Positions 9,780 through 55,473 of a stretch of DNA of 55,622 nt are shown piece by piece. The notes under the pieces are model-generated. The model was not told the DNA's origin. It did no database searches and saw nothing but the letters and a program-made list of their open reading frames with translations. Each line of letters opens with the position of its first letter. The first letter of the stretch is position 1. Origin of the DNA: a virus (Duplodnaviria > Caudoviricetes); IMG/VR virus record IMGVR_UViG_3300042260_000361, positions 1 through 55,622 of that record. The stretch is one strand, 5' to 3'. The translations under genes were made by a program, and so were the position numbers.

Positions 9780-10994
9780 ATGATTAAATTACAACAATTA
9801 CTTAACGAAGAAACTTTTACTGCTACTAATAAAGCAACAGGTAAAACATCGGTTTTCAAATCAAAAGATAGTAGAGATGCTGCAATTAAAGCAGGAACTC
9901 ATGATGAGAAAAAAGATGCCCCAACTGATAAAGGTAATGCAACAAAAGGAAATAAAACCCCAAAAGTAAATATCTTTGATAAACCATCAAAATCAGAACC
10001 AAAATCAGACACACCTAAAGCAACTCCTGCTGATTTAGCAGTTGATAAAGTTGTTTACAATACAAGAACAAAGACAGTTGGTATTGTAAGAATTGCAGAT
10101 GAAAGAGGTGAAACTAAAACTGATGCAGATGGTAATGTAAATTCATCTGAATTAGAACCATACAACCCAATGAAGTATCCACATCAAAAAGATGCTAAAG
10201 TTGCACCATCTACACAAAAAGAAGTAGATAGTAGAGGTTTATGGAATCCATTTGCACAAGATAAAGAAACATCTAAGGAAGAACCTAAATCAGAACCTAA
10301 ACAAAGAAAAGGTGTTCCTGCAGTAAATAAAGCAGTTAGACAACAAGCTCAAAAATTAGGAATTACTCCTGAAAAATTGGGTAAAGATGAATATTTGAAG
10401 AAAATGGCTCAAGCAGCAGTTTCTGCACTTACTGATTCAAACTTCCATCCTGAAGCAAGACAATTAGTTGCTGATTTAGAAGGTAAACCAGAAATGGCAG
10501 AGAAACCTGATTACCCATCAATGAAAGACCCAAAATATAAAGAAAAGATGGATGCTATAAGAGCTAAATACGATTCTGTATATAATACACCTGATAAAGA
10601 TGCAGATGAATTGGGAACTTCGGCATCACAATCTGCTGAGTGGAGTGGTGATACTGCAATCGATGCAATTGCATTTGATTTAAGAATGAACGGATTCCAC
10701 AAAATGGCAGATAAGATACAATCAGTAATCAAAGAAGGTAAAGTTAATAGAACTTCACTTATGAGAATACTGAATGAATCGGAAGCAGAAGAAATTGCCA
10801 ATTTAACTGGATTAAGAACTCAAGCTGTTAAGAAATTTATTGATGATAATAATATTGATGATAGAAAGTTATTAGCATATCTTAAAATAAAAGGACCTAA
10901 GACTTTAAGTAATAGAATGGATATGGCAACTGCAATTGTTGGTAAACCAGGAAACAAATATAGTCAAGGAATCATTAAAGCATTTAGTAAATAG
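9780..10994 (+). CDS. Modular putative internal head protein (MIKLQQLLNE leader)
   Basis: Same leader as the genes at 3645 and 11003; Lys/Pro-rich linkers; IKE and ILNE junctions near the C-terminus. Confidence 0.6.
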   Translation: MIKLQQLLNEETFTATNKATGKTSVFKSKDSRDAAIKAGTHDEKKDAPTDKGNATKGNKTPKVNIFDKPSKSEPKSDTPKATPADLAVDKVVYNTRTKTVGIVRIADERGETKTDADGNVNSSELEPYNPMKYPHQKDAKVAPSTQKEVDSRGLWNPFAQDKETSKEEPKSEPKQRKGVPAVNKAVRQQAQKLGITPEKLGKDEYLKKMAQAAVSALTDSNFHPEARQLVADLEGKPEMAEKPDYPSMKDPKYKEKMDAIRAKYDSVYNTPDKDADELGTSASQSAEWSGDTAIDAIAFDLRMNGFHKMADKIQSVIKEGKVNRTSLMRILNESEAEEIANLTGLRTQAVKKFIDDNNIDDRKLLAYLKIKGPKTLSNRMDMATAIVGKPGNKYSQGIIKAFSK

Positions 10995-11002
10995 GAGAAT
11001 AG

Positions 11003-11467
11003 ATGATTAAATTATCACAAATATTAAAAGAAGGTGAAGAAAGACAACAAAGTCAAATGTCATCTGAATTAAAGAAACATTTTTTAGAAATCGTATCTAC
11101 ATACAACAAGTATCAAGAACAGATGGATAGAAAATCGGATTTAGCAACTATCGCCGAAACATTGGGTGGTATAACTGAAGCAGCCAGAGCACTTGCATTA
11201 AATGAAGGTGATGATTGGTTTGATAAAGTAACCATCAAACGTAATATGAATGAGTTGGAGAAACTTGGTAAAGAATTTGATAAGTGTGCTTCAGAAGCAA
11301 ACTCGTTAGACCAACGTATGGGTGGATTATATGAAGATATGGGACACATTCTTTCTCGTTACTACAAATTAGGTGAAATATCCGAAGAACAAATGAAAAC
11401 AAGATTAGGTATCACAAACGAATCAGTAAAAACATCTAAAGGATGTGATATTTGTGATAAAAAATAA
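11003..11467 (+). CDS. Head-module helical protein (MIKLSQILKE leader)
   Basis: Leader motif, AGGAG upstream, C-terminal TNESVK. Confidence 0.6.
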   Translation: MIKLSQILKEGEERQQSQMSSELKKHFLEIVSTYNKYQEQMDRKSDLATIAETLGGITEAARALALNEGDDWFDKVTIKRNMNELEKLGKEFDKCASEANSLDQRMGGLYEDMGHILSRYYKLGEISEEQMKTRLGITNESVKTSKGCDICDKK

Positions 11468-11512
11468 TTTATATATATTTATACAAAGTTACAAACAATT
11501 TAAATTAAATTA

Positions 11513-11776
11513 ATGAGCGGAATATCAAGATGCACAGTCGAAGTTCGTAATGGTGACATTACAAAGGCTTTGAAAATCTTTAAAAAGAAAGTTATGGAAA
11601 GTGGTCATCTCTTAGAATTAAGAGAACGTAAAGAATACGTTAAACCAACTACTAAACGAAGATTGGTTAAACAGAAGGCAGTAAGAGAAGAACAAAAGAG
11701 AGTTATTCTTGAGAAAATAGCCGATGGTGACCAAAAATTACGTTTTTATACAAAAAAACGTAAGAAAAAGGAATAA
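11513..11776 (+). CDS. rpsU: Phage-encoded 30S ribosomal protein bS21
   Basis: VEVRNGDITKALKIFKKKV..SG.L.ELRERKEYVKPTTKRR fits the bS21 signature; own late motif at 11475-11483. Confidence 0.9.
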   Translation: MSGISRCTVEVRNGDITKALKIFKKKVMESGHLLELRERKEYVKPTTKRRLVKQKAVREEQKRVILEKIADGDQKLRFYTKKRKKKE

Positions 11777-11837
11777 AAATGTAAAATTTATAGAAAAATA
11801 TAGTTTTTTTATAAGTTGTATATATTTATTATCAATT

Positions 11838-11861
11838 AACTCACACTCAATGTGAGTTTTT
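11838..11861 (+). promoter_or_regulatory. Hairpin AACTCACA-CTCAA-TGTGAGTT with short T-tract in the scaffold gene leader
   Basis: Perfect 8-bp inverted repeat just downstream of ATATTTATT at 11822-11830. It could be a terminator or a 5' leader structure. Confidence 0.5.
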
Positions 11862-11981
11862 ATATTAAGTTGGTTAATGAATACCCTTCTATATAAGGTG
11901 TGACCGAACAACCGACCTAACTTTAATCTATATTGGAATTCTCCTAATAATTTCACAGAACAAACACAAGGAAGGTAAAAA

Positions 11982-13034
11982 ATGGCAAATTCAAAATTGT
12001 TAAAAGAAGCAATTGCTGATGCTAAGGCCGTTAGAGAAACTGCAATCGCTAATGCAAAAATCGCATTAGAAGAAGCTTTTACTCCAAGATTACAATCTAT
12101 CTTATCTAAAAAACTTCAATCAGAGATGGAAGGTGAAGAAGAAGAAGCAGATGTAAACGAAGAGTATGGTGTTGAAGACACATCAGATGCTGATTCATCA
12201 GCAATTGGTGATGGTGACAACAAACAACCTGCAGATGACGCTAATGACTCATCAGACATTGCACAATCAAACCCGGATACAGACGTAGAAACTGCAGAAA
12301 CAGGCGAAGAAGATGAAAACATCGAAGTAGTTGCTGAAGCAGAAGAAGACGAAGTTCCAGGAGAAACTCAATCTCGTATCGAAGAAGAAGACGAAGACGA
12401 ATTGGATTTAGAATCAATCATCAGAGAATTGGAAGATGAATTAGGTGGTGAAGAACCAACTGAAGAAGAACCATCTCAAGAAGAATCAGTTTACGAAGAA
12501 GAAGAATCTGAAGAAGCATCAGAAGAACCAGCAGTTGAAGAAGCTGAAGGTGAAGATGAAGAAATCGATTTAGATGAAATCTTACGTGAAATGGGATACG
12601 GAGATGATGAAGAAGCAGTTGAAGAAGGTGAAGAAGAAGCAGATGCAGCTATGGCAGCAAAAGATGCTGAATTGGAAGAAGCTTACAACGTAATCAAATC
12701 TCTAAAATCAACAATCAACGAAGTTAATTTGTTAAATGCAAAATTATTGTACACAAACAAATTATTCCGTTCATACGATTTGACTAATGAGCAAAAACAC
12801 AAAGTTGTTGAAACTTTAGACAGAACTCAAAACGTTAGAGAAGTAAAATTAGTGTTCTCTACTTTGGCAGAATCAATGAAAATTGGTGGAACTGCTAAAA
12901 AAGTAAAAGCACAAACAAAATTAACTGAATCATTTGCTTCTAAGCAAGTTGCTTCAACTGCACCAAAAAGAGAAATCATCGCAGAAAGCAATCAATTAGC
13001 AGACAGATTCAAGCAATTAGCAAATATTAAATAA
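11982..13034 (+). CDS. Prohead scaffolding/core protein (T4 gp22-like position)
   Basis: Very acidic central region with helical ends; immediately upstream of the major capsid gene. Confidence 0.8.
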   Translation: MANSKLLKEAIADAKAVRETAIANAKIALEEAFTPRLQSILSKKLQSEMEGEEEEADVNEEYGVEDTSDADSSAIGDGDNKQPADDANDSSDIAQSNPDTDVETAETGEEDENIEVVAEAEEDEVPGETQSRIEEEDEDELDLESIIRELEDELGGEEPTEEEPSQEESVYEEEESEEASEEPAVEEAEGEDEEIDLDEILREMGYGDDEEAVEEGEEEADAAMAAKDAELEEAYNVIKSLKSTINEVNLLNAKLLYTNKLFRSYDLTNEQKHKVVETLDRTQNVREVKLVFSTLAESMKIGGTAKKVKAQTKLTESFASKQVASTAPKREIIAESNQLADRFKQLANIK

Positions 13035-13060
13035 CAAAACAAACATTAGGAGAAAATAAA

Positions 13061-14689
13061 ATGGCAAATTTCGATTTATCAAAACTAATGGAAGGAAAGA
13101 ACCCACAACAAGTAATGTTGGCTGAAACACGTCAATTACAATCTAAGTGGGAAAAAACTGGACTTCTTGAAGGTTTAAAAAGCAGAGAGCAATCTCAAAT
13201 TGCAGTTCTTTTAGAGAACCAAGCAAAACAATTATTGGATGAAGCAACAGCAACAGGTACTTCTGCAGGTTCAGAAGAGTGGTCTGGTGTAGCACTTCCA
13301 TTAGTAAGACGTATTTTTGGTGAAATCGCAGCGAAAGAATTCGTTTCGGTTCAACCAATGAACTTACCATCAGGTCTAATATTCTTTTTAGATTTTAAAT
13401 ATGGAACAGCACAACCGGGTAACCCATCATACGCTGGAAAATCTTTATTCGGTGGTAACGGAACTTCTGCAGCTAATTCTGACTTCGGTAGAACTAAAGC
13501 AGCAGTAAATGGTCTTTATGGTGAAGGTCGTTTCGGATATTCAATCAACGATCAATCAGTAGCAGTAGCAGCAGGTAACCAATCATTTGCAACTGCATCT
13601 TGGTCAGATGTTGGATTCGATTCAGCATTATCTGCATCAATCGCAGCTTCACAAATCGCTAAGATTTCAGTATCAAAAGCAAACGTATCTGCAGTTTCTG
13701 ACGTAGATGCAGTTCGTTCATTCTACATCTCATCTTCAGTATTCGCAGCAGCAGATTCATTCTACCCAGCGTATTCTCAATTTGATGGTGCAAACTACAC
13801 ATTCTTCGCTAAAGTTGCTAACATTTCTTCAGGTTCAAACTCAACTACTTTGACAGTTAAGTATTCTGAGCAACCTGCAGCTTATGATAGAGGTGATTTC
13901 GAAGATGGTAACCCAACAGAACCGGCTACTGATTTAGGTATCCCAGAAGTTGATTTAGAATTGAAATCAGAGGCTATCGTTGCTAAGACTCGTAAGTTGA
14001 AAGCAGTGTGGACTCCAGAATTGGCTCAAGATTTAAATGCTTACCACTCAATTGATGCTGAAGCAGAATTAACATCTATGTTATCTGAATATATCTCATT
14101 AGAGATTGACTTAGAAATCTTAGATATGTTAAAAGCTAACGCTTTAACAACTGAATATTGGTCAGTAACTTTAGGTGAAGAGTATAATTCAGCAACAGGT
14201 GCATGGTTAGCAGGAACAAACTCTGCAGCATACACTAAAAACACATGGTTCCAGACTTTAGGTGCTAAAATCAACAAAGTATCTAACAAGATTCACCAAT
14301 TAACATTACGTGGTGGTGCTAACTTCATCGTAGCTTCTCCAGACGTATGTACGGTATTGGAATCTATTCCTGGATTCGTAGTAAACGCAGATAAAGATGC
14401 AATGTCATTCGCAGCTGGTGTAACAGCAGTTGGTTCTATGGCAAATCGTTATACGGTTTACAAAAACCCTTATATGACATCTAACGAAATCTTATTAGGT
14501 TTCAAAGGTTCAAACTTCTTGGAGACTGGAGCAGTTTACGCACCATACGTTCCATTGATTATGACACCATTAGTGTACGATCCAACTAACTTCACGCCAA
14601 GACGTGGTGTTATGACTCGTTACGCTAAGAAGATGGTAAGACCAGAATTCTATGGTAAGATTTATGTTAAAGATTTAGCTAATATCTAA
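13061..14689 (+). CDS. Major capsid protein (T4 gp23-like)
   Basis: LLENQ, VSVQPMNLPSGLIF, AKTRKLKAVWTPELAQDLNAYH, YAPYVPL and GVMTRYA motifs. Confidence 0.97.
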   Translation: MANFDLSKLMEGKNPQQVMLAETRQLQSKWEKTGLLEGLKSREQSQIAVLLENQAKQLLDEATATGTSAGSEEWSGVALPLVRRIFGEIAAKEFVSVQPMNLPSGLIFFLDFKYGTAQPGNPSYAGKSLFGGNGTSAANSDFGRTKAAVNGLYGEGRFGYSINDQSVAVAAGNQSFATASWSDVGFDSALSASIAASQIAKISVSKANVSAVSDVDAVRSFYISSSVFAAADSFYPAYSQFDGANYTFFAKVANISSGSNSTTLTVKYSEQPAAYDRGDFEDGNPTEPATDLGIPEVDLELKSEAIVAKTRKLKAVWTPELAQDLNAYHSIDAEAELTSMLSEYISLEIDLEILDMLKANALTTEYWSVTLGEEYNSATGAWLAGTNSAAYTKNTWFQTLGAKINKVSNKIHQLTLRGGANFIVASPDVCTVLESIPGFVVNADKDAMSFAAGVTAVGSMANRYTVYKNPYMTSNEILLGFKGSNFLETGAVYAPYVPLIMTPLVYDPTNFTPRRGVMTRYAKKMVRPEFYGKIYVKDLANI

Positions 14690-14751: not shown

Positions 14752-14772
14752 ATGCAAGATATATTTAAATTT

Positions 14773-15516
14773 ATGAAACCAATTAGATTATTTACGTTTG
14801 GATGCAGTTTTACTAATTACAACTGGCCTACATGGGCCGATATAATTGGGAGTAAATATAAACTTCATTATAATTTAGGAAGTAAGGGTGCTGGAAATTA
14901 TTATATTGCATTTAAACTATACGAAACTCACTTAAAATATAACATTACTAAAGATGATAAGGTAATCATTATGTTAAGTAGTGCAAATAGATTTGATATT
15001 TATGATGAACGTATTAATAAATTTAATCTAAATGGAAATATATACAATTCAGAGCATATATTTGGTAAAAAATTTGTAAAAGAAGTGTGGAATGATACTC
15101 ATTCAATTTATAATACGTGGTTTTGCGTTAAAAGTATAAAAACTTTATTAGATACTATTGGATGTCAATATAAAATTGTAGAAGCGTTTGGTTTATTAAA
15201 TACCGATACTGGCAATACTCTAAATACACATGATTCAACTAAAGATTTATTGAATGATTATAAAAATTCGGTATATACTATTCAAAATTTAAATAGATTT
15301 GCATTAAAATGCAATCCATCAACTTATAAATTATCAAATGGAAGACTTGATGGTCATCCAACTATTATGTGTAATCATAATTTTGTAAAAGAACATATAT
15401 CAGAATTTTATGATGATAAAATGTATGAAGTTGCACTAAAATGGGAATCCGAAATACTACCAGATGTAATGGAAACTAAGTTTTCCAAACAATACATCAA
15501 TACATCTTTATTGTAA
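14773..15516 (+). CDS. SGNH/GDSL-hydrolase-like protein
   Basis: FTFGCSFT (block I), GSKGAGN (block II), C-terminal DGHP. Start at 14773 preferred to 14752, which abuts the terminator. Confidence 0.6.
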   Translation: MKPIRLFTFGCSFTNYNWPTWADIIGSKYKLHYNLGSKGAGNYYIAFKLYETHLKYNITKDDKVIIMLSSANRFDIYDERINKFNLNGNIYNSEHIFGKKFVKEVWNDTHSIYNTWFCVKSIKTLLDTIGCQYKIVEAFGLLNTDTGNTLNTHDSTKDLLNDYKNSVYTIQNLNRFALKCNPSTYKLSNGRLDGHPTIMCNHNFVKEHISEFYDDKMYEVALKWESEILPDVMETKFSKQYINTSLL

Positions 15517-15639
15517 TTTAAAATTTCTTGTATCTATAATGGAAACCTTGTGGTTAAACATTCAGTGTCCTATGTGACATTTGAGTTGGAGAAACACCAA
15601 CAAATGAATTTTTAAATACAAACAAAAATAAGGAAAATT

Positions 15640-18017: not shown

Positions 18018-18082
18018 AAAATATTTGGAAATGTGAAATATATTTCGTATGTTAGCTTTGTAATAAGAGTTAAACATTAAAA
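18018..18082 (+). promoter_or_regulatory. Early (host-RNAP, Bacteroidota-type) promoter cassette, copy 1
   Basis: TTTG (18024)-N20-TATGTTAG (18048) overlapping TAGCTTTG; near-identical to 52073-52138. Confidence 0.8.
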
Positions 18083-18366: not shown

Positions 18367-18738
18367 ATGGAACAATTAGCATCAATCTTTTTTCATAGTA
18401 GAACTCAAACACACCAATTTCATACTTTGGTTAGTGGACCGGGTTCACTTGCTATACATTTAGCGTTACAAAATTACTACGAACAAATCATACCATTAAT
18501 GGATGATTTAATAGAAGCATATCAGGGTAAATATGGTATCATAAATTATAAACAAGTAAATGGTAACGATAATGATTCATCAAAGGAAAATATAATTGCA
18601 TACTTCGATAAACTCATAAAATTCTTAGAAACCGAAAGGCAAGCAGAAAAATTAAAAGATAGTTGGATTCAAAACGAATTAGATAACATTGCTAAACTAT
18701 TATATTCTACAAAATACAAATTAGTTAACTTAGGATAA
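18367..18738 (+). CDS. Ferritin/Dps-like four-helix protein
   Basis: HQFH......HLALQNYYE...LMDDLIEAYQG resembles Dps ferroxidase-site spacing. Confidence 0.65.
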   Translation: MEQLASIFFHSRTQTHQFHTLVSGPGSLAIHLALQNYYEQIIPLMDDLIEAYQGKYGIINYKQVNGNDNDSSKENIIAYFDKLIKFLETERQAEKLKDSWIQNELDNIAKLLYSTKYKLVNLG

Positions 18739-37509: not shown

Positions 37510-37593
37510 TATAAAAAATAATCTTTACAAAAAGTAGCTAATACTTATATGTGTATCATTACACAACAAAAAATTTAACAGGAGTAATATAAA

Positions 37594-39906
37594 ATGGCAG
37601 AAAAAATTGTATCACCTGGTGTATTTACGAGAGAGAATGACCTTTCTTTTTTATCACAAGGAATCGGAGAAATAGGAGCAGCAATCATAGGACCTTTCGC
37701 TAAAGGACCTGCATTCGTTCCAACGATTGTTAATACACAATCTCAATTTGAATCAATTTTCGGTGTACCTAATGGTGATTACTATACAGGATATGCCGTT
37801 CAAAACTATCTACGTGAAGCAGGGACAGTAACAATTGTTCGTGTTGGTCACGTTGGTGGATATAACCAAATAGAACCAAAAGGTATCGCAGTTAGTGGTT
37901 CTGATGGAACTACATTAGTAGGTGTATTGAAATCTACTGATAAGTGGACAACTGACGGAAATGGTGATATCATCACTGGTTCTATCAACTCACAACCATC
38001 TTCATCAGAATTCAGTATCACATTAAGTGGTTCAGATGCTCAATATAACATTGCAATTTCATCATCAATCCTACCATCTGCTGGAAATGATTTATCAGAT
38101 GTATTTGGTGAATCTGCAAGAGGAACTAAAGGTGCATACGTTTCACAATATTTTGAAAACGCAGCATCTCAATTAACATCTTCTATTGATGCTGGTGCTA
38201 AAATTGTTTTGGTTGATTTAGATGACCAAAGTTTTATAGACCAAGATTGCACATTTGCTTCTACACCATGGATTCAATCACAATTGATTTCAAATGAAAG
38301 AAGTAACTTATTCCGTTTACATACTTTGGGTGATGGTACGAATTACAACAAAGAATATAAAGTTTCAGTATTTAACGTAAAAGCAGCAGGTGAATCAAAT
38401 GCTACTGATTACGCTACGTTCTCTTTATCAATCAGAGCATATTCAGATACAGATAAAAGAAAATCAGTATTAGAAACATATAATAACGTAAACTTAGACC
38501 CTGCATCTCCAAACTACATTTTAAAAGTAATTGGTGATAGAAACGTAACTATCGATGCAAATGGTAAACAAACTGAAAATGGTGATTATGCAAATCGTTC
38601 TAAGATAGTTAGAGTAGAAGTTGCAGCAGAAGGTTCATTCCCAATCATCGCAGGACCATTTGGACACGAAGCATACCAATCTCCAATCGCAGGTAACGAT
38701 TCAATCACACCAGCAGTTGTATTTACATTAGGTTCTGATGATAACACTTCATCATCATCTACTAAATATAGTGGTATTGATTTAGAATCAACTTTAATTA
38801 AAATAGATAACTCACATTTCTTAGCACCAATTCCAAACGGAGCAGGAAATGGAACAAATACTGCATTTGCATTCGATACTGAATTATCATACGAATTGAC
38901 GGGTTCTTCAACTGCAGATGTAAACAAAAGACAATTTATCGTTGGTTTCCAAGGTGGATTTGATGGTGTAACTCCAACAATATCTAATGATAAAGGAAAT
39001 GATATCTCAGCAGGTAACTCTCAAGGGTTTAACTTAGCAACATCTACATCAAATGGTTCAGTTGCATATTTGAAAGCAATTAACTCTGTATCTAATCCAG
39101 ATGATTTTGATATTAACTTAGTAGTTGCACCGGGTATTGTTAGATATCACCATTCATATGTATTTGATAAAATTATTGATATGGTTGAATCTCGTGAAGA
39201 TGCATTCTTCATCGGTGATGTAACTGGTCCTGCAGAAGGTCAAGATATTGCAGTAGAACAGGCACAGTCAATCGATTCTAACTACGTTGGAACATATTAC
39301 CCATGGATGAAAACAATCGATAGAAACACCAACAAATTAACTGCAGTTCCACCATCAGTATTGATGCCAGGAATATACGCAGCGAACGATGCAGTTGCAG
39401 CAGAATGGTTTGCACCAGCAGGTTTGAATAGAGGTGGAATCATCGGAGCAGTTTCAGTATTGGATAGATTAACACATTCAGAAAGAGATTTCTTATATGA
39501 GAACAAAGTAAATCCAATCGCTTCTTTCCCTGGTGAAGGTATCGTGGCATTTGGACAGAAAACTTTACAAGATAAAGCATCTGCATTGGATAGAATCAAT
39601 GTAAGAAGATTATTAATCAAAGTTAAGAAATATATCGCTTCTACATCTCGTTACTTAGTATTCGAACAAAATACTGCAACGACTAGAAACAAATTCTTAA
39701 ATACGGTAAATCCTTATTTAGATGCGATTCAACAAAGACAAGGTTTATATGCATTCAGAGTTGTAATGGATGAATCCAACAACACACCTGATGTAATTGA
39801 TAGAAACATTTTAGCAGGACAGATTTATTTACAACCTACTAAAACTGCTGAATTCATTGTGTTAGATTTCAACATCTTACCAACCGGAGCATCATTTACA
39901 GCATAA
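37594..39906 (+). CDS. Tail sheath protein (T4 gp18-like)
   Basis: SPGVFTREND, GPFAKGP, WFAPAGLNRG, GQKTLQ..SALDRINVRRL and LQPTKTAEFI motifs. Confidence 0.96.
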   Translation: MAEKIVSPGVFTRENDLSFLSQGIGEIGAAIIGPFAKGPAFVPTIVNTQSQFESIFGVPNGDYYTGYAVQNYLREAGTVTIVRVGHVGGYNQIEPKGIAVSGSDGTTLVGVLKSTDKWTTDGNGDIITGSINSQPSSSEFSITLSGSDAQYNIAISSSILPSAGNDLSDVFGESARGTKGAYVSQYFENAASQLTSSIDAGAKIVLVDLDDQSFIDQDCTFASTPWIQSQLISNERSNLFRLHTLGDGTNYNKEYKVSVFNVKAAGESNATDYATFSLSIRAYSDTDKRKSVLETYNNVNLDPASPNYILKVIGDRNVTIDANGKQTENGDYANRSKIVRVEVAAEGSFPIIAGPFGHEAYQSPIAGNDSITPAVVFTLGSDDNTSSSSTKYSGIDLESTLIKIDNSHFLAPIPNGAGNGTNTAFAFDTELSYELTGSSTADVNKRQFIVGFQGGFDGVTPTISNDKGNDISAGNSQGFNLATSTSNGSVAYLKAINSVSNPDDFDINLVVAPGIVRYHHSYVFDKIIDMVESREDAFFIGDVTGPAEGQDIAVEQAQSIDSNYVGTYYPWMKTIDRNTNKLTAVPPSVLMPGIYAANDAVAAEWFAPAGLNRGGIIGAVSVLDRLTHSERDFLYENKVNPIASFPGEGIVAFGQKTLQDKASALDRINVRRLLIKVKKYIASTSRYLVFEQNTATTRNKFLNTVNPYLDAIQQRQGLYAFRVVMDESNNTPDVIDRNILAGQIYLQPTKTAEFIVLDFNILPTGASFTA

Positions 39907-39930
39907 GAATTTAAAAAAAATAATTAATAG

Positions 39931-39958
39931 AAAAAACCACTCAATGAGTGGTTTTTTT
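39931..39958. terminator. Intrinsic terminator, potentially bidirectional
   Basis: AAAAAACCACTC-AAT-GAGTGGTTTTTT. Confidence 0.85.
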
Positions 39959-39996
39959 ATTTTATGGTATTTATATATAAAATAACTCAATAAAGT

Positions 39997-40746
39997 ATGA
40001 CACATTATGTATATAAAATAATTGATAAAACTACAAACGAATATTATTTTGGGAGTCGTTCATGTAATTGTTTAGCAAAAGATGATGTGTATATGGGATC
40101 TATGAAAGTATGGAAACCAAAATCTGATAATCTTATTAAAGAAATACTAAATGACACATTTTCAGATAGAATTTCTGCAATGGAATATGAAAGTAATATT
40201 ATTAAATTACATATTAAAGATTCACTCAATCAAAATTATCATATACCGACAAGTGGATTTCATACTAATGGTAGAAAACAATCTGAATTAGAAAGAACCA
40301 ACCGAAGTAATCATAGAATACAATATGAATTATCAAAAGGTAGTAATAATGCAATGTATAATAAATCACATTCATTGGATAGTATTAAAAAAATGAAAAC
40401 CCAAGCAAAAAATAGATATACTAAAAAATGGTTTATTGAAAAATATGGAGAACAAATTGGTATTCAAAAATACAATGAAAAAGGGAAACTACAAAGTAAT
40501 AAATTAAAAAGTGTTGGCAATCCAATGTTTGGTAAATCACACACACCCACCTCTAAAATAAAAATGAGCGAATCTAAACAAAAAAAAGTGGGTAAATATA
40601 ATATTAAAAACGAAATTATTCATATTTATAGCAGTATAACTGAAGCAGCATCTAAAAACAACATTAGTATAAGTGCAATCAGTTTAGTATGTGATCCAAC
40701 TCGTATTAACAAAACTGCAGGTGGGTTTATATGGAAATTTATTTAA
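39997..40746 (+). CDS. Free-standing GIY-YIG (Seg-like) homing endonuclease with NUMOD3- and NUMOD1-like DNA-binding motifs
   Basis: YVYKI......YYFGSR..Y.GS; NAMYNKSHS and NPMFGKSHT; C-terminal YSSITEAA...ISLVC...KTAGGFIWK. Confidence 0.85.
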   Translation: MTHYVYKIIDKTTNEYYFGSRSCNCLAKDDVYMGSMKVWKPKSDNLIKEILNDTFSDRISAMEYESNIIKLHIKDSLNQNYHIPTSGFHTNGRKQSELERTNRSNHRIQYELSKGSNNAMYNKSHSLDSIKKMKTQAKNRYTKKWFIEKYGEQIGIQKYNEKGKLQSNKLKSVGNPMFGKSHTPTSKIKMSESKQKKVGKYNIKNEIIHIYSSITEAASKNNISISAISLVCDPTRINKTAGGFIWKFI

Positions 40747-40800
40747 AACAAAATAATCTTATATTTATATAAGTAACAATTATACAGGAGAATAATAATT

Positions 40801-41289
40801 ATGGCAGAAGTCCTTGAATTTAACGACATGTTCTATACCAATTTCGAACCAAAAACGAAAAATCGTTTTATCATGGAAATCGGTGGTATCCCTTCATATC
40901 TTATCAAAACAGCTAACAGACCATCGATTCAGTTTGAAACGATTACGTTAGATCATATCAACGTTAACAGAAAGTTGAAAGGTAAAGGAACTTGGCAACC
41001 AATAGAGATTACTCTTTTTGATCCAATCGTTCCAAGTGGTGCTCAAGCAGTAATGGAATGGGTTCGTTTATCACACGAATCATTAACAGGTAGAGATGGA
41101 TATGCAGATTTCTATAAGAAAGATGTTCAAATCTATATGTTAGGACCAGTAGGTGATAAAATTGAACAATGGACATTAAAAGGTGCATTTATCCAATCAG
41201 CAGCATTTAATGATTTGGATTGGTCATCAAACGATGTTTCAGAAATCTCCCTTACTTTAGAATACGATTACGCTATTCTAGAATTCTAA
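40801..41289 (+). CDS. Tail tube protein (T4 gp19-like)
   Basis: W.PIEITLFD, VMEWV, EQWTLKGAF and LDWS..ISLTLEYD motifs; follows the sheath. Confidence 0.92.
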   Translation: MAEVLEFNDMFYTNFEPKTKNRFIMEIGGIPSYLIKTANRPSIQFETITLDHINVNRKLKGKGTWQPIEITLFDPIVPSGAQAVMEWVRLSHESLTGRDGYADFYKKDVQIYMLGPVGDKIEQWTLKGAFIQSAAFNDLDWSSNDVSEISLTLEYDYAILEF

Positions 41290-52072: not shown

Positions 52073-52138
52073 AAAATATTTGGAAATGTAAAATATTCTT
52101 CGTATGTTAGCTTTGTAATAAGAGATAAACAATTAAAA
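52073..52138 (+). promoter_or_regulatory. Early promoter cassette, copy 2
   Basis: TTTG (52079)-N20-TATGTTAG (52103), followed by CTTTGTAATAAGAG. Confidence 0.8.
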
Positions 52139-52416: not shown

Positions 52417-52665
52417 ATGAGTTATACAAAGTTTGATAGACATTCTAATATGAGTGGTGAAACGTTAAGTGAATTGATGGATATTCTAAAAGATATCCGT
52501 TGGGAAACAAGTTTCCAACTTAATAATATGATTTACGGATTATTCGATGGTTATTTATATGATGAATTGGTTTCAACGGCAAAATTAGAGGCATCATCGG
52601 AGAATTATAAACGAATAAAAAAAGTTGTAAATATAGTCAAAAATTATCCAAAAATATTTGGATAA
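52417..52665 (+). CDS. Small early hypothetical protein
   Basis: 82-aa ORF with an A-rich initiation region. Confidence 0.65.
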   Translation: MSYTKFDRHSNMSGETLSELMDILKDIRWETSFQLNNMIYGLFDGYLYDELVSTAKLEASSENYKRIKKVVNIVKNYPKIFG

Positions 52666-52715
52666 TTCGAAAAAAATACCTATATTAGCTTTGTAATGAG
52701 AGATAAACATTAAAA
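52651..52715 (+). promoter_or_regulatory. Early promoter cassette, copy 3
   Basis: TTTG (52657)-N20-TATATTAG (52681), followed by CTTTGTAATGAGAG. Confidence 0.8.
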
Positions 52716-52732
52716 CTTTAAAATATAAAATT

Positions 52733-53092
52733 ATGAGCTTACCATTTAGTCTTACTTCCGTTTTAGAAACCGCTTCTCTTATAGAAGGATATGGTGTTAT
52801 TAAAAATGCTTTCCCCGTTAAAGGACAATTTGTTGATAGGATTATTACATATCCAGAAGCAGTGTTCGATGCACTTGCGGAAGTTGCAGAAGATTATCAA
52901 GATTGGCCGGAAGACCAAGGGTTTGGTAGTTCTGATATGACATATGCTCGTAAATCATTTATCGATACGATGATTTCGATTGCTAACCTTAGAGGTTATT
53001 ACGAAACAAAGTTTGACCCTTATCTAAAAGTGGTTGAATATTCAGAAGCAGAATATCATGAAACTATGTTGAGAAGAGAACAAGGACTTTAA
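52733..53092 (+). CDS. Small early hypothetical protein
   Basis: 119-aa ORF directly after the promoter cassette. Confidence 0.65.
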   Translation: MSLPFSLTSVLETASLIEGYGVIKNAFPVKGQFVDRIITYPEAVFDALAEVAEDYQDWPEDQGFGSSDMTYARKSFIDTMISIANLRGYYETKFDPYLKVVEYSEAEYHETMLRREQGL

Positions 53093-53108
53093 TATTAAAA
53101 CATAAACT

Positions 53109-53465
53109 ATGAAAAAAATCAACAAAGACCAGATAATATCTTTTAAATTATCTGATATAAAAAAGATGGAAGGTTATAAGTTCTTTCCAGCAACTAAGGT
53201 AGTAATACCATTTACTAACATTGTATGGTCTGAATCCACTGGATATTGGGCAACCAAAAAAGATTCAATGTGGGATCAAATAGATGAAGATTCAACGAAT
53301 TACATTGTAATCGATAATGAATTATATCGCAAACCTACTATATATCTTTCATTCGCAAGTGGATGGAGAGATGATGTAATAAAATACTTTGATACTAAAG
53401 TAGATGCAGAAAAGTGGATATCTGCTAATGATTTAGATGATAACAATTGGATTAACGTTGATTAA
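53109..53465 (+). CDS. Hypothetical protein
   Basis: 118-aa ORF in a tightly packed operon. Confidence 0.6.
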   Translation: MKKINKDQIISFKLSDIKKMEGYKFFPATKVVIPFTNIVWSESTGYWATKKDSMWDQIDEDSTNYIVIDNELYRKPTIYLSFASGWRDDVIKYFDTKVDAEKWISANDLDDNNWINVD

Positions 53466-53468
53466 GGT

Positions 53469-53792
53469 ATGCGGACACAAACAATAGAATACTTTGATTG
53501 GTTTGATATCGAAAAAGAAATCTGTAAAGAGATGGGTATTGAAGAAAAATACTTTAGAGATTACCATAAGTTAGTTGGCGGTGAATATAAAGACCTATGG
53601 CACTTTTGGTTAGAATACTTTGATTCAGTTCCTAATAACGATACCATTGTATTCAATGATTTGGGTGAAACTATGGAATCGAAAATTGATTGGGTGAAAA
53701 TCAAAGGAGAGGATTGGGGAATCCCGTTTATCGAAGCTGTTTATAGAGTTTGGGATGAATATGAAATCGAATATATAAAATATAGTTGGTAA
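53469..53792 (+). CDS. Hypothetical protein (acidic, Trp-rich)
   Basis: 107-aa ORF in a tightly packed operon. Confidence 0.6.
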   Translation: MRTQTIEYFDWFDIEKEICKEMGIEEKYFRDYHKLVGGEYKDLWHFWLEYFDSVPNNDTIVFNDLGETMESKIDWVKIKGEDWGIPFIEAVYRVWDEYEIEYIKYSW

Positions 53793-53806
53793 TATAATAA
53801 CAAAAT

Positions 53807-54130
53807 ATGAAAGGTTGGTATTGCATATACGAGTGTAGTAAGAATCAATGGTTGATGCATAATCAATGGTGGCAAAAAGATAGAGATTTGAATATTGTGA
53901 ATATTCCCACACAAACTAAATTAGATAGTTATATAAATCATAGTGCTGATATGGAATATCATCTAATTCAGACTAATTACCAAAACGTATTAACACTTGG
54001 AGATACTAAGGTAGGTGCATGGAGTATTTTAACTTTTGAAACACTACAAAATGCAGAAAAATATTTACTCAATGCTGGATTTTCTACAAACGAAGGTCAA
54101 TTCTACTCCATTCGTAAAATATACTTTTAA
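53807..54130 (+). CDS. Hypothetical protein
   Basis: 107-aa ORF in a tightly packed operon. Confidence 0.55.
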   Translation: MKGWYCIYECSKNQWLMHNQWWQKDRDLNIVNIPTQTKLDSYINHSADMEYHLIQTNYQNVLTLGDTKVGAWSILTFETLQNAEKYLLNAGFSTNEGQFYSIRKIYF

Positions 54131-54135
54131 ATAAA

Positions 54136-54167
54136 TTTGGAAATTATAAAAATAATCCGTATCTTTG
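54136..54167 (+). promoter_or_regulatory. Consensus Bacteroidota primary-sigma promoter
   Basis: TTTG (54136-54139)-N20-TATCTTTG (54160-54167). Confidence 0.85.
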
Positions 54168-54171
54168 TAAA

Positions 54172-55473
54172 ATGATTATAGTAGAATCTCAAAATGAGAT
54201 AGATGATTTTTTGAACCAATGGGAAACTCAATCCTCATTGGTTATACCTATTTGGTCTGATTTGGATTGTCATCCAATGAACACTCATTTATCTTTTTTA
54301 TATGTGAGATTTGAAGATGGTAAATATATCATACCATTCAATCACAATGATTGCGAAAATATTCAAATTGATTTATCTCAATCTACACAATCAAAGTGGG
54401 TATGGAATAAGAAAGGTATTTTACAAACTCCACTTAATTTACAAAACATTCGCGATATCCAATCGGAATCATTCTTCATCAATAATAATCTAATCGATTT
54501 AAACACGCAATTAGAACCCCTTACGAACTTTTATACTCGTTTGGGATTACGTGATGAATTAGGTAAATCAATCCCTATAATGAAGTGGATTGAGGTATTA
54601 AATACTATTACAAACGGATGGTCATTTTTACCACTTTTTTCAAATAATGGTAATATTGAGAAAAACTCACTTTTACCACTAAGTTGGGTTGATGAGACGA
54701 TGATTCCCATTCTTTCAGATATCGAGAATATGGGCCTCCGTGTCGATACCGAAAAATTTTTTGATAGATGGCCATCTAATTCCAAACATTTGCGTAACGA
54801 TATCATTTGGACCGAATATAACCCATATACCCTTACCTCACGTCCCTCAAACCGACATGGGGGTATCAACTTTGGTGCACTTAATAAAAAAGATGGATCA
54901 AGAGAAGTCTTCATTCCAAGAGAAAACACAATCTTTTTACAATTCGATTATGATGCATACCACGTACGGATTATTGGTAAGATGATTGGATACGAATTAC
55001 CTACGACTTCCGTCCACCAATGGTTAGCAGACCAATATGGGTGTCCTTATGATGAATCGAAAGGAAGAACGTTTCGAATTCTTTATGGGGGTGTGAGTGA
55101 AGAAGATAAGGAGATTCCGTTTTTTAAGAAGGTTGATGAGTTCATCCAACGGGTCTATACCGAATCCCAACAAAGAGGATACCTCCTAACTCCAAAGGGA
55201 AGGAAGATACCTCTAAATTGGATTGAAGGGTCAAATCCCCAAAAGGTATTTAATTATCTTTTACAAGCAATGGAAACAGAATTTAATATGGAAGTTCTTA
55301 AAAGATTGAAAGTCCAAAATCACCCGTTGCCGATTCTTTATACCTACGACTCATTTTTATTTGAGTATAATTTAAGTTGGGATACTGAAAGGGCAAAGGA
55401 AATTAAGTCCGTTCTTCAAAGTTTTGGATTTCCCGTAAAAGCGAGTTGGGGAACGGATTACTCAAAACTTTAA
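54172..55473 (+). CDS. Short family-A DNA polymerase-like protein
   Basis: TSRPSN, motif A FDYDAYHVR, motif B SKGRTFRILYGG, NYLLQA, motif C YTYDSFLF. Confidence 0.85.
   Translation: MIIVESQNEIDDFLNQWETQSSLVIPIWSDLDCHPMNTHLSFLYVRFEDGKYIIPFNHNDCENIQIDLSQSTQSKWVWNKKGILQTPLNLQNIRDIQSESFFINNNLIDLNTQLEPLTNFYTRLGLRDELGKSIPIMKWIEVLNTITNGWSFLPLFSNNGNIEKNSLLPLSWVDETMIPILSDIENMGLRVDTEKFFDRWPSNSKHLRNDIIWTEYNPYTLTSRPSNRHGGINFGALNKKDGSREVFIPRENTIFLQFDYDAYHVRIIGKMIGYELPTTSVHQWLADQYGCPYDESKGRTFRILYGGVSEEDKEIPFFKKVDEFIQRVYTESQQRGYLLTPKGRKIPLNWIEGSNPQKVFNYLLQAMETEFNMEVLKRLKVQNHPLPILYTYDSFLFEYNLSWDTERAKEIKSVLQSFGFPVKASWGTDYSKL

Follow-up and report, generated by a model that had tools for sequence, protein, structure and literature searches.

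In a 55,622-bp stretch of DNA from a large lake phage (the window; IMG/VR record IMGVR_UViG_3300042260_000361, linear, 32% GC, estimated to be 29% complete), we found a gene for ribosomal protein bS21, rpsU, among the head genes. bS21 is the ribosomal protein that phages carry most often. The bS21 of this phage has an arginine in place of the tyrosine (Tyr54) that stacks on the anti-Shine-Dalgarno (anti-SD) end of 16S rRNA in Flavobacterium johnsoniae, and the genes of the phage are split into late ones, many of which are led by Shine-Dalgarno (SD) motifs, and early ones without them. The bS21 gene, the Tyr-to-Arg change and the late/early split in SD use are solid. Taking them together, we tentatively suggest that a phage bS21 lacking Tyr54 and made late in infection may free the anti-SD and thereby favour the SD-led virion mRNAs.

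A phage bS21 with arginine at the Tyr54 position

The rpsU region comprises the following features.
11474-11483, + strand: TATATTTATA motif, 30 nt upstream of rpsU, a late-type promoter-like element that also precedes many virion genes
11484..11512, + strand: A/T-rich, SD-less rpsU leader, with no AGGA, GGAG or GAGG at -17..-4
11513-11776, + strand: rpsU, encoding the phage bS21 (87 aa, pI 10.3; PF01165, TIGR00030, phrog_21469)
11684..11686, + strand: codon AGA for Arg58, at the Tyr54 position of F. johnsoniae bS21 in an ungapped alignment
11723..11773, + strand: C-terminal extension past the length of host bS21, with a conserved LRFYTKK and a lysine-rich end
11838..11868, + strand: terminator-like hairpin (8-bp stem, 11838-11858) and T-run, 62 nt past the rpsU stop (-10.5 kcal/mol, z -2.9)

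Judged by its profile matches, the open reading frame (ORF) at 11513-11776 is a real bS21, scoring 53.3 bits against PF01165 (E 2.2e-14, cut-off 27) and 47.3 bits against TIGR00030 (cut-off 28.95). The original prediction, made from the letters of the sequence, had placed its start at 11475; the gene stands, but 38 nt of leader had been wrongly included. rpsU lies between the protease gene and an acidic scaffold-like gene (11982) with the capsid gene, on the same strand as the head genes, and 22 contigs, of up to 191,134 bp, carry the identical protein. The AF2 model (mean pLDDT 78.7) consists of helices at residues 16-30, 32-38 and 48-70, the last of which contains Arg58, and an unstructured stretch at residues 71-87. 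A Foldseek search of the model against the PDB returned nothing at E <=0.001, the weak top rows being mitoribosomal bS21; an isolated model is a poor query for a protein that lies extended on rRNA.

The alignment with F. johnsoniae bS21 (chain 7jil_z, residues 8-59, ending ...KPSVVKRAQIQKAAY(54)IQTLK) runs without gaps from the conserved K-P, pairing K44-P45...R58 of the phage protein with K40-P41...Y54 and placing Glu59 at the position of Ile55. The same pairing of Arg58 with Tyr54 was obtained with HMMER (query 10-58 to chain 5-54), with MAFFT on 151 representatives and in the HMM alignment, and Arg58 is invariant in the family (22/22 members). The tyrosine that stacks on the anti-SD is therefore lost, and the original reading by eye, KQKAVR where host proteins have KAxY, was right. 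In the MAFFT alignment, the Tyr54 column holds R in 67, K in 24 and Y in 12 of the 151 representatives, hence Arg or Lys in 91.

The predicted basic C-terminal extension also exists: the phage protein has 87 residues against 64 in the host protein, and the part after T46 has a pI of 10.6 and a net charge of +11 over 41 residues. Phage bS21s that keep the tyrosine (Tyr-type) have tails with pI and charge values similar to those of the window protein, which is Arg-type. The C-terminal domain of Bacteroidia-type bS21 is described as far less basic than that of other phyla (Jha 2020; McNutt 2023). In three Arg-type relatives (L025, L027 and L030), AGGAGA abuts the called rpsU ATG with a spacer of 0-1 nt, outside the interval scored for SD motifs and too near the ATG for a usual SD.

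Shine-Dalgarno motifs in the window and in a complete relative

We scored a gene as SD-led when AGGA, GGAG or GAGG occurs at -17..-4 of its start codon. The credible genes of the window all lie on the + strand, and an SD motif precedes 23 of 56. The background rate is 6.8% over all positions, or 5.3% when the 1176 other ATGs are taken (binomial P 5e-13), and just one of the 56 genes is preceded by the reverse complement of the motif. The motifs match the complement of the anti-SD core, are enriched over background and stand 5-12 nt before the start (GGA to ATG), with AAAGGA and TAGGAG as the commonest words. Duplex energies against a 12-nt 3' tail proved too noisy, as A-rich leaders pair with its UUUCU end, and motif counts were used instead. 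Every SD site named in the original prediction was found, namely those of the capsid (TTAGGAGAA), scaffold (CAAGGAAG), sheath (ACAGGAGTA) and tube (ACAGGAGAA) genes, as well as those before 8722, 11003, 18839, 23118, 43228 and 50790. The four sites before the main virion genes are as follows.
11969..11972, + strand: SD (CAAGGAAGGT) of the acidic scaffold-like gene 11982-13034
13048..13052, + strand: SD (TTAGGAGAA) of the major capsid gene 13061-14689
37580..37584, + strand: SD (ACAGGAGTA) of the tail sheath gene 37594-39906
40786..40790, + strand: SD (ACAGGAGAA) of the tail tube gene 40801-41289

The claim that most late genes are SD-led was too broad. The motifs are real, but only about half of the non-early genes (23/47) carry one; the genes for the large terminase subunit (TerL), the portal and several tail proteins do not. 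As predicted, rpsU and the genes called early (18092, 52148, 52417, 52733, 53109 and 53807) have no SD. Window genes behind host-type promoters (see below) are SD-led in 0/9 cases, against 23/47 elsewhere (P 0.007, with the classes set post hoc).

By its sequence, the window is about one fifth of a jumbo myophage genome of about 289 kb, because it is collinear with the complete relative G001 (288,673 bp, direct terminal repeats, 31.2% GC) at 84-94% nucleotide identity (mostly 87-91%); the bS21 proteins are 99% identical. PHROGs matches on the window identify TerL (2015), portal (4162), prohead protease (8722), major capsid (13061) and head-tail adaptor (18839) and, in the tail part, tail fibre and baseplate proteins, sheath (37594) and tube (40801).

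The SD split extends across G001, where 60 of 395 ORFs from a simple ORF caller have an SD. In bins of 10 kb, the SD fraction is 0-10% over most of the genome and 40-73% at 130-170 kb, which holds the head and tail genes; two further blocks with baseplate and endolysin genes reach 25-41%. The first gene behind a host-type motif is SD-led in 0/18 cases and the first gene behind a TATTTATA motif in 15/33 (P 3.6e-4), with 45/344 for genes behind neither; a slightly different motif pattern gave 0/19 and 17/35. Among genes with a PHROGs annotation, SDs precede 3/46 of the non-structural ones and 10/19 of those for virion structure or lysis (P 9e-5), in a count that left out unannotated ORFs, 13 ORFs crossing locus boundaries and, ending at L097:16820-18919, 63 further ORFs (about 260-289 kb). 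The SD difference between gene classes is thus significant both in the window and in G001.

G001 also carries a tmRNA gene (tag AEEKSSFTFADAMAFVGADLAVAA; L085:19030-19404) and an array of about 26 tRNA genes for nearly all amino acids (L085:19787 to L086:10272), and it codes for peptide deformylase, GroEL and GroES. The lineage therefore seems to put much into translation. No tRNA genes were found in the window.

Promoter-like motifs and transcription of rpsU

The host-type sites resemble the sigma-A promoters of Bacteroidota and combine TTG, which we take to be the -33 element of these promoters, with a downstream box. They are real, comprising three near-identical blocks and one exact TTG-N20-TATCTTTG.
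18024..18060, + strand: host-type (Bacteroidota sigma-A-like) promoter block TTTGGAAAT...TTCGTATGTTAGCTTTG, before the SD-less genes 18092 and 18367
52079..52115, + strand: second copy of the block, before the SD-less genes 52148 and 52417
52657..52693, + strand: third copy of the block, before the SD-less genes 52733-54130
54137..54167, + strand: exact TTG-N20-TATCTTTG site, with its end 4 nt upstream of the start codon (ATG) of gene 54172-55473

The -7 box of Flavobacterium psychrophilum sigma-A is given as TAnnTTTG (PMC9723704). In G001, TTG-N20-TAnnTTTG occurs 27 times on the coding strand, 22 of these intergenic, and six times on the other strand, against two and nine for the pattern read backwards. 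The homologue of gene 54172-55473 in G003, another complete genome, has its TTG-N20 site arranged likewise.

The likeness between the three blocks extends over 50 nt (TTTGGAAAT...TAGCTTTGTAATAAGAGnTAAACA; 18024-18075, 52079-52130 and 52657-52708), and together they may make up a small regulon comprising early or middle units in and beside the structural region. Their -7 box in register with N20 is TATGTTAG, and TAGCTTTG overlaps it 5 nt downstream. The ORF at 18367-18738, behind the first block, belongs to a family annotated as "starvation-inducible transcriptional regulator" (phrog_858, E 5e-14); it is SD-less in the window and SD-led in 14/20 Arg-type relatives.

The second class of motif has 21 copies of TATTTATA on the + strand of the window, and ATATTTAT is the most enriched 8-mer of the intergenic regions of G001, present in 40 of 153. 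We infer that the TATATTTATA motif family acts as a late promoter. The SD-less, A/T-rich leader ascribed to rpsU is confirmed, but the motif upstream of it is the late-type TATATTTATA and not the host-type one, and transcription of rpsU appears to coincide with that of the late genes, without preceding it. In all four RNA libraries, from four studies, contigs of relatives at >=90% likeness cover rpsU: X15 (10974-13354), X16 (11224-12013) and X18 (11335-11912) span it whole and X19 covers its first part. Such libraries can contain DNA, and contigs give neither transcript starts nor timing, so that these contigs are consistent with transcription of rpsU alongside the head genes and nothing more; contig depths were not used for ranking genes. 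The hairpin behind rpsU may not terminate fully, since RNA-library contigs cross it.

Host

The host is probably a member of Bacteroidota. This assignment is favoured by the TTG-N20-TAnnTTTG promoter-like sites, the SD-less early genes, a Flavobacterium phage relative and the freshwater source; all sequencing runs holding the sequence are freshwater. The relative is phage immuto of Flavobacterium sp. LMO8, in which the genes for TerL, portal, protease, a scaffold-like protein and capsid follow one another as they do in the window. Against a Bacteroidota host, the capsid of the window phage is only 52-55% identical to that of immuto, no better than its 54% to that of Mel-JY01, a phage recorded on a cyanobacterium. 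The predicted Bacteroidota host remains likely from the promoter sites of G001 and from immuto. A scan of one genome per prokaryote species found no cellular relatives with the signature peptides of the bS21 family, and hence no donor lineage can be named.

Microcystis phage Mel-JY01 (PP395634.1; loci L228 and L230-L239) is recorded on a cyanobacterium, Microcystis elabens, and has 24 TTG-N20-TAnnTTTG sites on the coding strand against four on the other, with four and four in the control. With N19 as the spacing, which is the wrong one, no enrichment was seen. The recorded cyanobacterial host is open to doubt because the promoter type is Bacteroidota-like.

Proposed mechanism

In F. johnsoniae, Tyr54 stacks on A1534, the point at which the 16S rRNA tail bends towards bS18 and bS6, and further contacts with the tail come from Ile55 (Jha et al. 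2020; PMC7797042). In vitro, a strong-SD template yielded 3-fold more protein with Y54A ribosomes and 5-fold more with ribosomes carrying a C-terminal deletion of bS21 (delta-C), and the gains in vivo were 70% and >2-fold; the host rpsU itself carries a very strong SD, through which it is autoregulated (PMC9976891). In the most likely host, a freshwater member of Bacteroidota, bS21 (through Tyr54 and its C-terminal part), bS18 and bS6 would hold the 3' tail of 16S rRNA, and SD sites would go unread because of it. Late in infection, the phage would make a functional bS21 from an SD-less mRNA that unmodified host ribosomes can read. This protein seems to retain the ribosome-binding core, with Arg for Tyr54, Glu for Ile55 and a different, longer basic tail; it would occupy the place of bS21 on 30S subunits that are newly made or exchanging and might grip the 3' tail more loosely, in the manner of F. 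johnsoniae bS21 with Y54A or without its C-terminal part. The converted ribosomes would initiate better on the SD-led capsid, scaffold, protease, sheath and tube mRNAs, and no better, or worse, on the SD-less host and early mRNAs. The host, the incorporation into ribosomes, the release of the anti-SD and the gain in translation are all inferred.

In its broadest form, the proposal makes the SD a private late translation code for virion genes, with a Tyr-less bS21 turning SD-blind Bacteroidota ribosomes into SD readers, which we regard as somewhat doubtful. It would mirror the circuit of the host, in which an SD-led rpsU is read by bS21-free ribosomes, as the SD-less phage rpsU would be read by bS21-replete ones. 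Synthesis of phage bS21 would then limit itself, because the bS21-replete ribosomes that read its mRNA become converted. The Tyr-type phage bS21s described by Chen et al. would represent a different strategy, with the host mode retained.

bS21 type and SD use across phage lineages

We clustered the phage bS21s at 90% identity into 64 clusters, 62 of which have >=8 neighbour genes, and typed them by the residue in the Tyr54 column; the 12 Tyr-type representatives were too diverse to serve as an alignment query, and two single proteins were searched instead. An SD fraction of >=0.3 was found in none of the 10 Tyr-type clusters (range 0-0.23), against 35 of the 52 clusters of all other types (Fisher P 8e-5, Mann-Whitney P 4e-5, kinship ignored), and the pooled counts are 24/271 for Tyr-type and 659/1606 for Arg-type. 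Head genes homologous to those of the window but standing beside a Tyr-type bS21 are SD-less (SD in 0/15). Gene by gene, SDs are kept in the Arg-type loci for the capsid (53/53), protease (42/43), w8228 (41/42), w11003 (46/47), w18839 (39/40) and w20004 (38/39), and are rare for TerL (2/28) and w21637 (2/34). Nearly all neighbour genes in 73 Arg-type loci lie on the strand of bS21, and rpsU itself has an SD in 0/100 bS21-bearing related loci. In immuto, no bS21 was found across the whole 160,410-bp record, and SDs precede 1/46 annotated genes, none on the capsid gene, and 7/213 genes genome-wide.

Several findings weigh against the proposed release of the anti-SD. All five Phe-type clusters, which are aromatic at the Tyr54 position, fall between 0.20 and 0.53 in SD fraction, with SD-led capsid genes in 5/5, and 14 of 38 Arg-type clusters have an SD fraction <0.3. 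The complete Arg-type genome G003, whose bS21 lies far from the head genes, has an SD on 28 of 317 ORFs; its capsid gene is SD-less, and its protease, sheath and tube genes are SD-led. By these Phe-type and SD-poor Arg-type lineages, the simplest form of unmasking is contradicted. In a sample drawn by capsid alignment (80 loci, of which 12 without a called capsid ORF and 26 with <5 kb upstream were set aside, leaving 42), the capsid gene is SD-led in 18/24 loci with bS21 and in 13/18 without one within 8 kb; bS21 was sought here by a six-frame search, the ORF-based pass having overlooked copies in at least L162, L205 and L210. In Mel-JY01, recorded on a cyanobacterium, SDs stand on 10/17 genes behind early-type promoters and on rpsU. 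The rpsU gene would have no head start, because it has the same late-type motif as the genes to be helped, and the function of Tyr54 might be taken over by a Phe-Tyr pair that is conserved in the phage tail (LRFYTKK). In addition, bS18 and bS6 also hold the tail, and the effect of Y54A is modest (PMC7797042, PMC9976891).

The comparative record is therefore mixed: Tyr-type phages and immuto are SD-poor, but Phe-type phages are SD-rich, some Arg-type ones SD-poor, and SD-led capsid genes occur without bS21. Unmasking agrees with what the F. johnsoniae mutants show biochemically and with the contrasts to the Tyr-type phages and immuto. The original prediction had named three findings that would speak against it, namely no SD difference between gene classes, conserved anti-SD-binding residues and a host outside Bacteroidota; we examined all three and found a significant difference, a lost tyrosine and a probable Bacteroidota host, none of which refuted the idea. 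Of the ribosome switch that it proposed, the split in SD classes and the loss of Tyr54 hold, and the replacement of host bS21 and the release of the anti-SD are conjectural in the light of this mixed record.

Alternative explanations

The phage bS21 might serve another purpose, with the SDs of the late genes as an independent trait. It could keep ribosomes complete late in infection or capture them through other surfaces, such as the N-terminal helix (Chen et al.), and the SDs could be read by ribosomes with a free anti-SD, such as a bS21-free subpopulation, or tune initiation otherwise. The similar shares of SD-led capsid genes with and without a nearby bS21, the SD-poor Arg-type phage G003 and the SD-rich genes that accompany Phe-type bS21 all fit such a separation, as does the bS21-free ribosome pool of F. 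johnsoniae, which reads strong SDs (PMC9976891). We consider it somewhat unlikely. It leaves the invariant Arg58 and the loss of both tail-contacting residues unexplained, and Tyr-type bS21 is never found beside SD-rich neighbours (0/10 clusters), while immuto, which lacks bS21, is almost without SDs. The loci without bS21 are moreover fragments, and the gene may lie elsewhere: a search of the whole records of 10 capsid relatives found bS21 in three (once elsewhere in a complete genome, twice inside the locus) and not in the other seven, which are only 15-34% complete.

Another reading dispenses with any switch, in that the host, outside Bacteroidia or atypical, would read SDs natively, the bS21 would be an ordinary Arg/Lys-type protein, and strong SDs would simply mark highly expressed virion genes. 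Among solved structures, the phage protein indeed matches E. coli bS21 best (E 8.5e-6) and that of F. johnsoniae less well (5e-4); Arg and Lys are the commonest residues in the Tyr54 column; the bacterial genomes scanned lack the signature motifs of the family; and the cultured Mel-JY01, with its recorded Microcystis host, has SDs throughout (68/235 ORFs). This reading is nevertheless improbable in view of the 27 strand-specific TTG-N20-TAnnTTTG sites of G001, behind which the genes are SD-less, and of the head module common to the Flavobacterium phage immuto. A native SD reader would have no need of SD-less early genes, and Mel-JY01's own promoter sites cast doubt on its recorded host. Very improbable, finally, is that the AGGA-type motifs are signals for late transcription, RNA processing or RNA stability and not ribosome-binding sites. 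Several of them do lie a few bases downstream of TATTTATA, but they keep a set spacing of 5-12 nt from the start codon, they also precede operon-internal genes that follow gaps of 10-20 nt and lack a promoter motif (8228, 8722, 9327, 9780 and 11003), and they are complementary to the anti-SD core, with almost no reverse complements before the genes.

Other features of the region

Two stretches of the window differ from G001. In the gap between the sheath and tube genes, the window has an 865-bp insert (39921-40785) with a homing-endonuclease-like ORF (39997-40746, phrog_314), in place of which G001 has 26 bp. After the terminator of the capsid gene, a 761-bp stretch (14766-15526) without counterpart in G001 contains the ORF 14752-15516 (254 aa, no PHROG match, no SD), whose homologues are SD-less in all nine related loci. 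A further related locus (L229; LR756508.1:169722-173517) belongs to an uncultured 484-kb GenBank phage with 41% GC around the locus; its bS21 gene lies ~2 kb upstream of the capsid gene, and its capsid is 55% identical to that of the window.

Relation to known systems

The earlier study of Bacteroidota phages concluded that their bS21 is host-like and keeps Tyr54, and the family described here lacks Tyr54 and accompanies SD-led virion genes in what is probably an SD-blind host group. The role of a phage bS21 thus becomes precisely and cheaply testable with existing F. johnsoniae strains and reporters. If the proposed release of the anti-SD is true, nature would offer here a virus that re-specifies the choice of start sites by swapping a single ribosomal protein, and with it a clear example of specialised ribosomes. 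In the literature, we found no statement tying a Tyr-less phage bS21 to SD-led phage genes, though the supplementary alignments of Chen et al. could hold Arg-type members; in McNutt et al. (2023; PMC9976891), the speculation concerns exchange by phage bS21 and not SD-led phage genes.

The closest described phages are clades a-e of Chen et al. (2022; PMC9723584), with genomes of 293-331 kb and 31-33.7% GC, compared with 288.7 kb and 31.2% GC for G001. In both groups, bS21 is part of the block with the TerL, portal, prohead protease and capsid genes. Both are of freshwater origin, their hosts are predicted to be Bacteroidota, and bS21 seems to be expressed late or with the structural genes (PMC9723584 for the Chen clades). 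However, bS21 in the Chen clades lies on the strand opposite to the head genes and in the window phage on the same strand, and, supplementary alignments aside, all 61 of their bS21s keep Tyr54 or another aromatic residue where the window family has Arg (PMC9723584). Chen et al. accordingly regard the phage bS21 as blocking the anti-SD like that of the host (PMC9723584). In the reverse-strand, Chen-like loci L100 and L115, 0/14 and 3/13 neighbour genes are SD-led, against 12/13 to 16/22 in the closest relatives of the window phage.

Marine phages, Pelagibacter phage HTVC008M among them, encode bS21 too (Mizuno et al. 2019, cited through PMC9976891 and PMC9723584), but their hosts belong to another phylum, which has no problem of anti-SD sequestration; the window bS21 is only 36-38% identical to relatives of the HTVC008M group (Mosig, Melnitz). 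The cultured Mel-JY01 (190 kb) resembles the window phage more closely, with bS21 on the same strand between the protease and capsid genes, Lys or Arg at the Tyr54 position, SD-led capsid, sheath and tube genes and both promoter-like motifs; we found no published paper on it. It differs in its recorded cyanobacterial host, in a capsid identity of 54% and in that SDs are not confined to late genes. In its head region, SDs precede 12/21 genes, rpsU among them.

The nearest functional parallel is offered by the F. johnsoniae mutants (Y54A, residues 43-64 deleted, or no bS21), in which the anti-SD is freed, and ribosomes shift towards SD-led mRNA, once Tyr54 or the C-terminal part is missing (PMC9976891, PMC7797042), and which the phage bS21 resembles in lacking both Tyr54 and Ile55. 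The F. johnsoniae cases were either made in the laboratory or, for the natural bS21-free pool, serve the autoregulation of an SD-led rpsU, whereas the phage would supply a foreign bS21 from an SD-less mRNA, the reverse of the strong-SD rpsU of the host (PMC9976891).

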